Notes under the pieces: generated by a model
The model's input: the letters and a program-made list of their open reading frames with translations, nothing else
What the model was told of the DNA's origin: nothing
Database searches by the model: none
Part shown: positions 13,944 through 16,021 of the stretch, piece after piece
Layout: each line of letters begins with the position of its first letter
How positions within the stretch are numbered: the stretch's first letter is position 1
Made by a program: the position numbers and the translations under genes
Sequence record: PZ583738.1
Reading direction: 5' to 3' (one strand)
Origin: a phage
DNA length: 64,000 nucleotides

Positions 13944-14291
13944 ATGACCAAACAACATGGATTAAATATGGAATTACCAATTAAAGCAGTAGGTGAATAT
14001 ATTATTTTGGTTTCTGAGCCAAAGCAAGCTGGTGATGAAGAAACTACGGCATCAGGTATCGTTATCGGAAAACTCCATCAGGGTGAAATCCCGGAAATGT
14101 GTGAAGTATTTTCGATTGGTCCGGATGTTCCTGAAGGTTTCTGTGAAGTGGGTGATTTGACTCCTCTTCCGGTTGGCAAGATTGCAAACGTTCCGCATCC
14201 TCTGGTTGCTCTGGGACTTAAGCAGGCTAAAGAAGTTAAGCAGAAATTTGTGACTTGTCATTATAAAGCTGTTCCTTGTCTTTATAAGTAA
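13944..14291 (+). CDS. 31: co-chaperonin GroES homolog gp31
   Basis: [16 protein letters not shown]...[15 protein letters not shown]...[15 protein letters not shown] matches T4 gp31; start may be the second ATG (13968); MotA-box promoter upstream. Confidence 0.92.
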
Positions 14292-14300
14292 AATTAGCGT

Positions 14301-14308
14301 TATAAATA
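14301..14308 (+). promoter_or_regulatory. late promoter TATAAATA
   Basis: Exact octamer just downstream of the gene 31 stop; ~155 nt upstream of rIII-like ATG. Confidence 0.5.
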
Positions 14309-14462
14309 ATAATATGGATTGGTTGATGTCATACAGAGCTTTGCTGGTGTATGGGGTTAGCTAATCCTAAACGGTGGACTACAACTGAGAGACTTGTCGA
14401 AAGGAAGTGAAATTCAGAAGAACGTGTCCACCAAATATTCACCTCATATTGAGGCTTCTAAA

Positions 14463-14717
14463 ATGTCTTTAAACAAACAATTACAACACGCTCTCGAACT
14501 GCAACGCACTGCATGGAATAACGGTCACGAAAACTACGGCGCATCTATTGATGTTGAAGCCGAAGCACTGGAAATTCTGCAGTATTTCAAACATCTTAAC
14601 CCGATTCAAACCGACCTTCGCGCAGTGCTCGAAGCAAAAGATGAACTGAAATTTGCTAAGCCGCTGGCATCTGCTGCCCGTAAAGCTGTTCGTCATTTTG
14701 TCGTAACCTTGAAGTAA
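14463..14717 (+). CDS. rIII: rIII-like lysis-inhibition accessory protein (by position and size)
   Basis: 84 aa from ATG at 14463 (track start 14394 is TTG); lies between gene 31 and the gene 30.x array as in T4; a TATAAATA late promoter lies ~155 nt upstream. Confidence 0.5.
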   Translation: MSLNKQLQHALELQRTAWNNGHENYGASIDVEAEALEILQYFKHLNPIQTDLRAVLEAKDELKFAKPLASAARKAVRHFVVTLK

Positions 14718-15046
14718 GTTTTAAGTGGATGTTGGCAGGTACCTCCACTATAATATGATACCTGCTTGTATATTGTCTTTAATATCATCCGAGGAGCCAC
14801 CGAATTATCTGATTAATGGTTTGCGAATCATTATAGTTTTAGACCCCGATAATTTTGTGGTGTACCTCTTGAATGTATTTTGTACTATCACGCGTCAGAA
14901 AAAGGTTATCTGTCTAAGTCGTGGTTGGTATGATGACGAGGTTTATGGTTATCCTGTCGTTAAATATACAAAACCTATGTTCCCCCTTGAGGGCTTGCGC
15001 AGACAATGTCAATAAGTCCTGCATTCTATTTTAAAGAGAATTTAAT

Positions 15047-15208
15047 ATGGCTAAGAAAGAAGTTAAAGTTGTTGATGGCTCTTCCAAACGCGCTGGTTAC
15101 AAGCGTGCGTCCAACCAGCGAATCAATCAGGTAACTGATAAACTTCAGGCTCGTGCTCGTGCGGTATTGCGTGCCGATGCAGCTTGCTTTGGTAAGCCGA
15201 AAGCATAA
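15047..15208 (+). CDS. hypothetical small basic protein (53 aa, MAKKEVKVVDGSSKRAGYKRASNQ...)
   Basis: Not in ORF track (below 60 aa); weak AAGAG RBS; immediately followed by a strong GGGACTC-TTCG-GAGTCCC-T6 terminator. Confidence 0.4.
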   Translation: MAKKEVKVVDGSSKRAGYKRASNQRINQVTDKLQARARAVLRADAACFGKPKA

Positions 15209-15213
15209 GTTCA

Positions 15214-15237
15214 GGGACTCTTCGGAGTCCCTTTTTT
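15214..15237 (+). terminator. intrinsic terminator GGGACTC-TTCG-GAGTCCC-T6
   Basis: Perfect 7-bp GC-rich stem, tetraloop, T6. Confidence 0.8.
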
Positions 15238-15252
15238 ATTTTCCATAAAGGG

Positions 15253-15282
15253 GTTTACAACAGGGTTTGACCAGTGCATAAT
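15253..15282 (+). promoter_or_regulatory. early promoter (GTTTAC -35, 18-nt spacer, CATAAT -10)
   Basis: Upstream of ORF 15326; shares a 22-nt block with the promoter at 37118. Confidence 0.6.
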
Positions 15283-15325
15283 GATTCCATACTGAGTTGC
15301 ACATTAAACAAATGAGGAAAATACT

Positions 15326-15613
15326 ATGTTTATGACTACTTACTTTGATACACGCAAAAATTTCTGTGAAGTTGTTTTCTCTAAAAAAGGCCCTAATGTT
15401 CCTGCTGGGTGTGAACCAACTAAAGAATCCATTAAAAACTATGTGGATATAGTTTGCCCAGTTGAATTCAGGACTGTTAATGGACGTGATACGCTGGCAA
15501 TCACCAAGCTTCGCCGTGACATTGATATTGACCCAATTGCAGCACGTGAAATTAATTCGTCTGATATTAATGGCGGTAATGTTAAATCACACGGTTTCCA
15601 GATGAGGTTCTAA
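15326..15613 (+). CDS. hypothetical protein (30.x array)
   Basis: 95-aa ORF with GAGGAAAA RBS downstream of early promoter. Confidence 0.55.
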   Translation: MFMTTYFDTRKNFCEVVFSKKGPNVPAGCEPTKESIKNYVDIVCPVEFRTVNGRDTLAITKLRRDIDIDPIAAREINSSDINGGNVKSHGFQMRF

Positions 15614-15807
15614 TGCAACTATTTCTATCACAAACTGTTCAGTTAAAAGGCGTAGGTATTCCTGGAATGATTTCTAAGGTCTTGCCTGCTTTTCAATTAG
15701 GCAATATTTCCATTAAAGAAGCATATGCAGTCCTGTGGGTTGACGGAACAGAAGACGTTCGCATGGGTGGTGAGTTGTCTGTAATCAAATGTTTAAAGCG
15801 AGGATAA
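15613..15807 (+). CDS. hypothetical protein
   Basis: 64-aa ORF, start overlaps upstream stop. Confidence 0.5.
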   Translation: MQLFLSQTVQLKGVGIPGMISKVLPAFQLGNISIKEAYAVLWVDGTEDVRMGGELSVIKCLKRG

Positions 15808-15808
15808 T

Positions 15809-16021
15809 ATGTTTAAGAAACTGATTCAGAAAATTTTGGGAACAGAAATGGTTGAAGTTACTTATCGTGTAACAGACGTGAGTCCATGGGCCCGAAATAT
15901 TGAACCATATACTAAAACAATTAAAATGCTGAAATCTGACGGTGGATTGTCTATTAAAGACCGTCTACCTGGTTATGGTCATTGGGCAAACGTTGATGTA
16001 GTAAGTGTCAAAGATGTCTGA
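15809..16021 (+). CDS. hypothetical protein
   Basis: 70-aa ORF with AGGA RBS. Confidence 0.5.
   Translation: MFKKLIQKILGTEMVEVTYRVTDVSPWARNIEPYTKTIKMLKSDGGLSIKDRLPGYGHWANVDVVSVKDV

Follow-up and report, generated by a model that had tools for sequence, protein, structure and literature searches.

The locus between rIII and 30.9

This analysis concerns the gap between the genes rIII and 30.9 in a phage sequence of 64,000 nucleotides (record PZ583738.1), which at its full length is called the window below. By megablast, positions 14400-15330 matched 872 phage records, with the best matches, at 97% identity, in P896 and VR7 of Gaprivervirus, and the region belongs to a T-even phage. The gap, 14718-15046, was found to be this phage's version of a conserved plus-strand non-coding structured RNA. 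The RNA is a chain of independently folding modules, of which the long hairpin C and the pseudoknot A qualify as structured RNA in the general sense. The genes, the gap and the terminator lie as follows:

14463..14717, plus strand: rIII, lysis inhibition accessory protein, 84 amino acids (phrog_1457, E 4.7e-42)
14718..15046, plus strand: structured non-coding RNA region, intercistronic between rIII and 30.9
14725..15015, plus strand: open reading frame (ORF) of 96 amino acids with a GTG start, the only long plus-strand ORF in 14718-15046
15047..15208, plus strand: gene 30.9, basic protein of 53 amino acids (phrog_1427, function unknown, E 4.5e-26)
15214..15237, plus strand: intrinsic terminator GGGACTC-TTCG-GAGTCCC-T6, end of the rIII-RNA-30.9 unit

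The ORF in the gap, the 53-codon ORF behind it and the terminator were all present where an earlier sequence-only reading of this DNA had placed them. That reading saw no convincing ORF in the gap and proposed a non-coding RNA, a regulatory leader or a gene with an unusual start. Its first two suggestions are supported by the nucleotide conservation that we observed across T-even genera and by the compensatory changes in the helices described below. Searched alone by blastn, the gap matched 773 T-even phage records, most of them covering 14790-15044, and the gap of T4 matched that of the window at 72% identity. In 13 co-linear sequences, the proportion of variable columns was 20.6% in the gap, compared to 28% in rIII and 39.5% in 30.9. 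Over the three codon positions, the variable columns were distributed as 13/9/50 in rIII and 17/14/33 in 30.9, and as a flat 14/14/15 in the gap. The absence of a convincing ORF was borne out by this pattern and by the curated records: the T4 reference has nothing annotated at 130541-130784, the 244 bases from rIII to 30.9, and those of VR7, SP18 and IME08 have no annotation between the two genes.

The idea of a gene with an unusual start did not hold. The start of the 96-codon ORF falls in a 72-nucleotide segment that is private to the window phage and IME08, and the frame is broken elsewhere, because T4 is shorter by about 50 bases and the SP18-type phages are about 100 bases longer. The shorter plus-strand ORFs are 14921..15034 (37 amino acids) and 15006..15134 (42 amino acids). 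A frame of 34 codons beginning with ATGATG (14930-15034) is open in the window, in VR7 and in T4-type phages despite insertions and deletions. However, its length ranges from 1 to 38 codons across phages and is thus not conserved, and its ATG bases form one strand of the pseudoknot stem S1. No Shine-Dalgarno sequence was visible by sequence reading upstream of the start at 14725 or at 14930, and neither the 96-residue product nor that of the 34-codon frame had a family in Pfam or PHROGs. Both frames are open in the window and automatic annotation places assorted short coding sequences in the gap of P896, UPEC01 and PTE-Eco05, which speaks for a small protein, but without the codon periodicity seen in the flanking genes we consider a coding gap scarcely credible. 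The label '1,4-alpha-glucan branching enzyme', which lies over the gap ORF or over 30.9 in the records NBEco003, AV122, KMB26 and EAWsc9, is evidently a propagated annotation artefact.

Folding of the intercistronic RNA

An alignment of nine phages revealed paired changes in the gap, CCACCGAATTATC...GATAATTTTGTGGT compared to CCGTCGAACTGTC...GACAGTTTTACGGT. Two modules carry most of the structural evidence:

14791..14868, plus strand: module C, long bulged hairpin (covariation and minimum free energy)
14933..14976, plus strand: module A, H-type pseudoknot, the universal element (covariance model and covariation)

Module C consists of the helices C1 (14791-94/14865-68), C2 (14796-800/14857-61), C3 (14802-09/14848-55) and C4 (14814-21/14826-33), with a conserved internal loop TAGTTTTAGACCCC at 14834-47. 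In alignment A3, which holds 19 distinct sequences, 99.4% of the cells were paired and seven pairs were altered on both sides; none of 500 shuffles did as well, and sliding one partner along the other reduced the pairing to 25-64%. The minimum free energy of the module gave a z-score of -3.0 (0/200 shuffles). At three positions, many or all of the sequences have a G.U pair. In a transcript of the opposite strand these would become A.C mismatches; the RNA is therefore read from the plus strand, like the genes.

In module A, the stem S1 joins ATGACG (14933-38) to TGTCGT (14955-60) around the loop AGGTTTATGGTTATCC at 14939-54. The stem S2 pairs the loop bases AGGTTT (14939-44) or ATGGTT (14946-51) with AAACCT (14971-76), and in the T-evens of E. 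coli either of two GGUU stretches could form it. S2 thus links the loop to the stretch beyond the conserved GUUAAAUAUCCAAAA linker, and the connecting loop (GT)TAAATATACAA is conserved too. Across phages, S1 keeps AUG...CGU and varies in its interior (ACG/UGU, UGG/CCA, UC/GA). S2 changes by genus on both of its sides: CAAGGUU/AACCUUG, GUUGGUU/AACCAAC, AGUAGUU/AACUACU, GGUAGUU/AACUGCU, UGUGAG/CUCACA and GAUGG/CCAUC. The covariation score was 0.344 in alignment A2 (26 sequences), compared to 0.133 after shuffling (0/500), and 0.303 compared to 0.121 in alignment A6 (38 distinct sequences); swapping the S2 partners among 11 sequence classes gave p ~1e-4. A covariance model of the module had a single match in the 64-kb window, at 14928-14981 (71.8 bits, E 1e-16), with a runner-up of 11.9 bits, and so found no second copy of the pseudoknot there. 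Of 76 sources taken from IMG/VR, from phages in GenBank and from metagenomes, 73 had exactly one match, on the plus strand and downstream of rIII.

The remaining modules are smaller:

14735..14765, plus strand: hairpin GCAGGTA / TACCTGC, 7 base pairs with a 17-nucleotide loop (-10.6 kcal/mol, z -1.35)
14887..14925, plus strand: module F, optional hairpin, outer helix ATCACG/CGTGGT, inner helix CAGA/TCTG, loop AAAAGGTTA
14979..14997, plus strand: module D, small hairpin GTT-CCC-loop-GGG-CTTG, sequence nearly invariant across genera
14999..15022, plus strand: module E, hairpin GCAG...CTGC with the conserved loop CAATGTCAATAAGTC
15023..15041, plus strand: weak hairpin ATTCT / AGAAT, pairing the Shine-Dalgarno region of 30.9 (AAGAG, 15034-38)

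The first of these stands in for a small hairpin 'B' of the other T-evens and is known from two sequences. It overlaps a sigma-70-like match, TTGGCA-16-TATGAT (14732-14759), which might provide an extra transcription start in the window phage and IME08. The 72-nucleotide segment that contains it, 14718-14789, is common only to the window phage and IME08 (Dhakavirus), unlike rIII and 30.9, which are closest to those of Gaprivervirus phages. Within this segment, TGCTTGT at 14763-69 resembles a MotA box (middle promoter) but deviates from the consensus, and it too occurs in the two phages only.

Module F is missing from T4, and in SP18-type phages a module of about 140 nucleotides lies at its position. 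The inner helix covaries once, from CAGA/TCTG to CAGC/GCTG, in two sequences (L129 and L138); the outer helix is weakly supported, with a double change in L133 that breaks a pair. The z-score of the module was -1.0. The stem of module D is kept in the variants CCTC/GAGG, GCCT/AGGC and CCCT/GGGG, and its placement relative to module A differs between genera. In module E, an inner alternative, GAC-AAT-GTC (15002-10), draws on the same G in competition; the G residues pair either with a distal CC, which gives the outer helix, or with a nearby CC, which gives an inner hairpin of three base pairs. The outer pair changes from A:T to T:A in L144 and the SEA1-type phages, and the inner pair is A:T in the window, G:C in T4 and G.T in VR7. 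Since some compensatory change has occurred in each of the two pairings, module E may be a two-state element. Its place is taken in other genera by a different stable hairpin.

Two further pairings were rejected. The minimum free energy fold preferred a helix between GGGCTT of module D and AAGTCC of module E, of which the SEA1-type phages alter one partner without compensation. A pairing of the 5' end of the T4 gap (TTATTGG) with the module E loop (CCAATAA) is mismatched by the 5' ends of VR7-type phages, in which the loop is unchanged.

Distribution and mosaic build

A gap between rIII and 30.9 was present in all Tevenvirinae genera sampled, with a length of 120 to about 420 nucleotides, and the structured RNA lay there in T4 and in each other examined T-even phage that has 30.9. 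The order of the modules is B-C-A-D-E in T4, A-B-I-D-E in Klebsiella phages and D-A-E in Karamvirus and Winklervirus. The window has its special 5' hairpin followed by C-F-A-D-E, and SP18 has the module of about 140 nucleotides in place of F. Modules are thus gained, lost and reordered between phage genera. The T-evens with the RNA infect Escherichia, Shigella, Klebsiella, Salmonella, Serratia, Edwardsiella, Enterobacter, Cronobacter and Pectobacterium. Neither the 5,426 E. coli genomes searched nor plasmids contained a match to the RNA.

The RNA and 30.9 appeared to come and go together. All 39 IMG/VR loci with 30.9 were on large T4-like contigs, nearly all of which also yielded an rIII locus. 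Three of the 76 sources had no match to module A: L238, which ends close to rIII, the RB49-like L159, and L235. In L159 and L235, both the RNA and 30.9 are missing and a terminator lies right behind rIII; in L235 (1130-1260), rIII abuts a terminator identical to the one that follows 30.9 in the window. This suggests the clean loss or gain of a cassette made of the RNA and 30.9.

The module of about 140 nucleotides is missing from the window and from T4. It lies at about 1950-2095 in L004 (SP18) and occurs also in L003, L008, L112-L116 and 18 IMG/VR contigs; its carriers include SP18, UPEC01, pSs-1 and phages of Klebsiella, Edwardsiella, Serratia and Enterobacter. The module runs from GGCAAGTGCATGCTACC to GCTAACGGTGTGCAACAGATAAGAG, is closed by its own covarying helix and contains a hairpin with a GNRA loop, TCGA-GAAA-TCGA, with the stem variants CTGA/TCAG and CCGA/TCGG. 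There were 24 distinct versions, one per genome. It had no Rfam match and was found in none of 185,579 bacterial and archaeal genomes. It looks like a self-contained fold of aptamer or ribozyme grade.

A complete T4-type RNA also lies in a phi92-like phage that is not of the T4 type (L162, 1290-1640), inside a transfer RNA (tRNA) cluster between tRNA-Gly and tRNA-Gln, and the same type of insert is present in L161 and NC_023693. Here the ATG of the RNA is joined to the last 27 codons of rIII and not to 30.9. The order, the RNA and then the rIII tail, is circularly permuted compared to T4. A direct repeat, TTTATTGGAGATT, flanks the insert, and its GGAGATT forms the 5' end of tRNA-Gln. This copy seems to be of recent origin, and in one version hairpin D is damaged.

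Transcription unit, possible function and analogues

Around the rIII-RNA-30.9 unit, the following features were recognized:

13944-14291: gp31, annotated neighbour, upstream of rIII
14301..14308, plus strand: match to the T4 late-promoter consensus TATAAATA, upstream of rIII
15253..15282, plus strand: early-type sigma-70 promoter match GTTTACA ... CATAAT (10/12 matches), serving the downstream 30.x genes

The rIII protein is 62-87% identical to that of ten T-even genera. The T4 record X54536 annotates a late promoter between 31 and rIII, at a site equivalent to 14301..14308, and from the sequence match we take the latter as the likely start of a late rIII-RNA-30.9 transcript. The terminator begins 5 nucleotides past the stop codon of 30.9 and is composed of GGGACTC (15214-15220), TTCG, GAGTCCC (15225-15231) and T6 (15232-15237). 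A scan of the 2.2-kb region counted one terminator, which is not above the shuffle expectation of 1.5, and the site is kept at the equivalent place in VR7, T4 and the metagenome locus L235. From the end of the RNA to 30.9, the scan detected nothing that resembles a terminator; the sole terminator is 3' of 30.9. In most phages, no promoter of the RNA's own is recognizable and the RNA begins at the rIII stop codon. Because the RNA mostly has no promoter and no terminator precedes 30.9, we infer that it is most probably transcribed as the intercistronic part of a single rIII-RNA-30.9 message.

The protein of 30.9 is annotated in VR7, SP18, IME08 and T4. It has 14 Lys+Arg, 10 Ala and 4 Asp+Glu among its 53 residues, and AAGAG at 15034-15038 precedes its gene. 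No relative was found in Pfam or in the Protein Data Bank (PDB), and it has no detectable relation to any ribosomal protein or to another family. An AlphaFold model predicts a disordered basic N-terminus and a single helix at residues 24-48, with a mean predicted local distance difference test (pLDDT) score of 69.5. The basic composition and the model are compatible with RNA binding and prove nothing.

The existence of the RNA and its fold are well supported. As to its function, we suggest, tentatively and with not quite an even chance of being right, that the RNA is a cis-acting leader that controls the translation or the stability of the 30.9 message in the rIII-RNA-30.9 transcript. We favour this because the RNA is contiguous with the ribosome binding site of 30.9, shares both its presence and its absence with that gene and lacks a separate 3' end. 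The three elements would be transcribed as one message ending at the terminator, in which the RNA would serve 30.9 in cis as a 5' leader. A protein would bind to the pseudoknot and the conserved loops, the simplest candidate being gp30.9 itself in an autoregulation of the ribosomal-protein type; the pseudoknot and the loops might also hold back ribonucleases. The last small hairpin over the Shine-Dalgarno bases would then let the state of binding or folding set the level of 30.9 translation. Pairing of the Shine-Dalgarno region recurs from genus to genus in differing sequence (TTCT/AGAA, CTCC/GGAAG, CCTC/GAGG), which may point to a regulatory role for this hairpin.

Several points weigh against a leader of 30.9. 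All the functional steps are inferred. A leader of 240-420 nucleotides is very long for a gene of 53-59 codons, and the universal pseudoknot lies at no fixed distance from the start codon (about 60 to more than 300 nucleotides). The stems over the Shine-Dalgarno bases have only 3-6 base pairs and are weak (-1.6 to about -5 kcal/mol). The order and the set of modules vary by genus, which favours independent units over one operator, and the phi92-like phages have the T4-type RNA without 30.9. On the structural side, the full 343-nucleotide stretch is not more stable than shuffled sequence (z -0.12), and therefore the case for structure rests on covariation and not on energy; the aligned sequences are mutually related, and the shuffle controls are not probabilities.

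Because of the independent modules, the long leader, the variable distance of the pseudoknot and the weak Shine-Dalgarno pairing, the main rival is that the modules are cut from the rIII-30.9 transcript and act in trans, as stable small RNAs or in an RNA-protein particle with gp30.9; possible roles are those of decoys or sponges for RNA-binding proteins or defence systems of the host or phage. Each module is closed by its own helix, the modules come, go and reorder between genera as independent units, the loops are conserved beyond what the stems need, and the gap is better conserved than its neighbouring genes. The RNA also moved without 30.9 into the phi92-like tRNA cluster, a context rich in processing, and the very basic gp30.9 is always adjacent. 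However, in most phages the RNA lacks a promoter of its own, its 3' end is without a terminator, it contains no tRNA-like element, there is no evidence for processing sites, the stable RNAs rnaC and rnaD of T4 are not similar, and the phi92 copy may be a recent and inert acquisition. We hold an action in trans to be unlikely, if far from negligible. Somewhat less probable again, in our opinion, is that the universal pseudoknot, hairpin C and the GNRA-loop domain of about 140 nucleotides of other T-evens are separate functional RNAs (aptamers, protein decoys or gp30.9 partners), which different phages have combined differently. If so, they would be the first riboswitch-like or trans-acting regulatory RNAs of T4-type phages, lying in a gap of the reference genome.

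The region could also be a structured 3' untranslated region of rIII that shields the message from 3'-5' decay or tunes rIII expression. Structured 3' regions stabilize bacterial messenger RNAs (mRNAs), the RNA is downstream of rIII in each T-even genome that carries it, and in PEi20, PetCM and CBH8 a module begins within 2 nucleotides of the rIII stop codon. However, the distance from that stop codon to the universal pseudoknot varies from 0 to about 300 nucleotides and the transcript runs on into 30.9. Because two phages, L159 and L235, retain rIII with a plain terminator and lose the RNA only along with 30.9, a 3' role for rIII is improbable. The conservation might instead reflect an element at the DNA level, such as a promoter cassette, a recombination site or a replication signal, or mere recent common ancestry. 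T-even genomes do swap small regulatory cassettes by recombination, as with the PeSL cassettes of the RB49-type phages; the boundaries of the modules resemble recombination joints, and the sigma-70-like match at 14732-14759 would suit a promoter. We regard this as highly improbable: compensatory changes preserve the helices across genera, many invariant G.U pairs would turn into A.C mismatches in the opposite strand, and the promoter-like segment is confined to two phages, whereas the structured modules are widespread.

The covariance-model scan that the sequence-only reading had proposed gave no support for a known family: Rfam 15, run with permissive filters on 14000-16000 of the window and on ten related loci, had no match in the gap, and the only matches nearby, Atu_C8 and TarB, were weak and lay on the 30.9 terminator. 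The RNA is therefore not a catalogued family. Riboswitch models of Rfam gave no match even at E up to 10; of pairings that might switch, the two competing ones in hairpin E and the one over the Shine-Dalgarno bases are present but weak. ARAGORN found no tRNA or transfer-messenger RNA gene in the whole window. The RNA does not qualify as a trans-acting small RNA of the Hfq type, in that the terminator lies past 30.9 and the RNA begins at the rIII stop codon in most phages. It is a new RNA family, absent from Rfam, within a known category, and its mosaic build is unusual.

The nearest analogue is the pseudoknot operator of T4 gene 32, which is unlike the RNA in sequence, loop geometry and position. 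The gene 32 pseudoknot has loops of 1 and 7 nucleotides and coaxial stems, as the T2 structure shows. In module A, 4-5 nucleotides lie between the 5' strand of S2 and the 3' strand of S1, and the connecting loop has about 14 nucleotides of conserved sequence. Both are H-type pseudoknots in a T-even mRNA leader upstream of a ribosome binding site, with a UUAAA-like sequence after the stems. However, the RNA does not have the build of the gene 32 operator: its loops are longer, the pseudoknot is separated from the start codon by 70 nucleotides or more and by further hairpins, the gene and the sequence differ, and module A sits in a much longer mosaic. The logic of autoregulatory protein binding that we propose for the 30.9 leader is borrowed from gene 32, whose mRNA operator, a pseudoknot followed by A+U-rich UUAAA repeats, is bound by gp32 (PMC3014915).

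Other known systems are more distant. The leaders of ribosomal proteins, such as the rpsO/S15 pseudoknot, likewise place a structured pseudoknot before a small gene for a very basic protein, and RNA and gene are always together. However, gp30.9 shows no detectable relation to ribosomal proteins, no mimicry of ribosomal RNA was found and those leaders show no shuffling of modules; the analogy is one of function alone. Structured phage RNAs are also known from T4 itself, namely rnaC and rnaD (species 1 and 2 RNAs, in the tRNA cluster), and the phi92-like copy likewise lies in a tRNA cluster. They come from another locus, the gap RNA has no tRNA-like 3' domain, and the comparison gave only a chance-level match of 10-12 bases on the opposite strand. 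The PeSL cassettes of RB49-type phages, reportedly described by Arbiol et al. in 2010, are said to be promoter and terminator units at the DNA level that are shuffled between T4-type genomes. They share with the gap the shuffling of small non-coding cassettes, and the terminator and early promoter at 15214-15282, outside the gap, are built alike. In contrast, the modules of 14790-15046 are RNA folds kept by covariation without promoter or terminator features, and within the gap only 14732-14759 resembles a promoter, in two phages. The preQ1-I, SAM-II and fluoride aptamers, too, are small H-type pseudoknots that have an A-rich connecting strand and lie upstream of a ribosome binding site, but no Rfam model of these matched and no ligand-related gene lies downstream.

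In their review of 2010, Uzan and Miller (PMC3014915) note that neither a riboswitch nor a small RNA acting in trans had been characterized in T4. Our literature searches returned no account of the gap RNA or of the function of gp30.9. In the text of a large phage RNA screen (PMC10690425), T4-type phages are not mentioned, and the screen may hold the gap RNA unnamed. The blank 244 bases of T4 are a conserved folded RNA with a pseudoknot across T-even genera. The RNA offers a handle on the orphan protein gp30.9 and is a natural example of RNA modules shuffled like gene cassettes. The functions proposed here can be tested directly, since the element is short and T4 is open to engineering.

Downstream of the terminator lie the genes 30.6, 30.5 and 30.4, and X54536 annotates an early promoter 3' of 30.9 in T4, at a site equivalent to 15253..15282. 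The genes 30.8 and 30.7, which intervene between 30.9 and 30.6 in VR7, T4 and IME08, are missing here, and 30.6 (15326-15613) directly follows the terminator and the early-type promoter (15209-15613).

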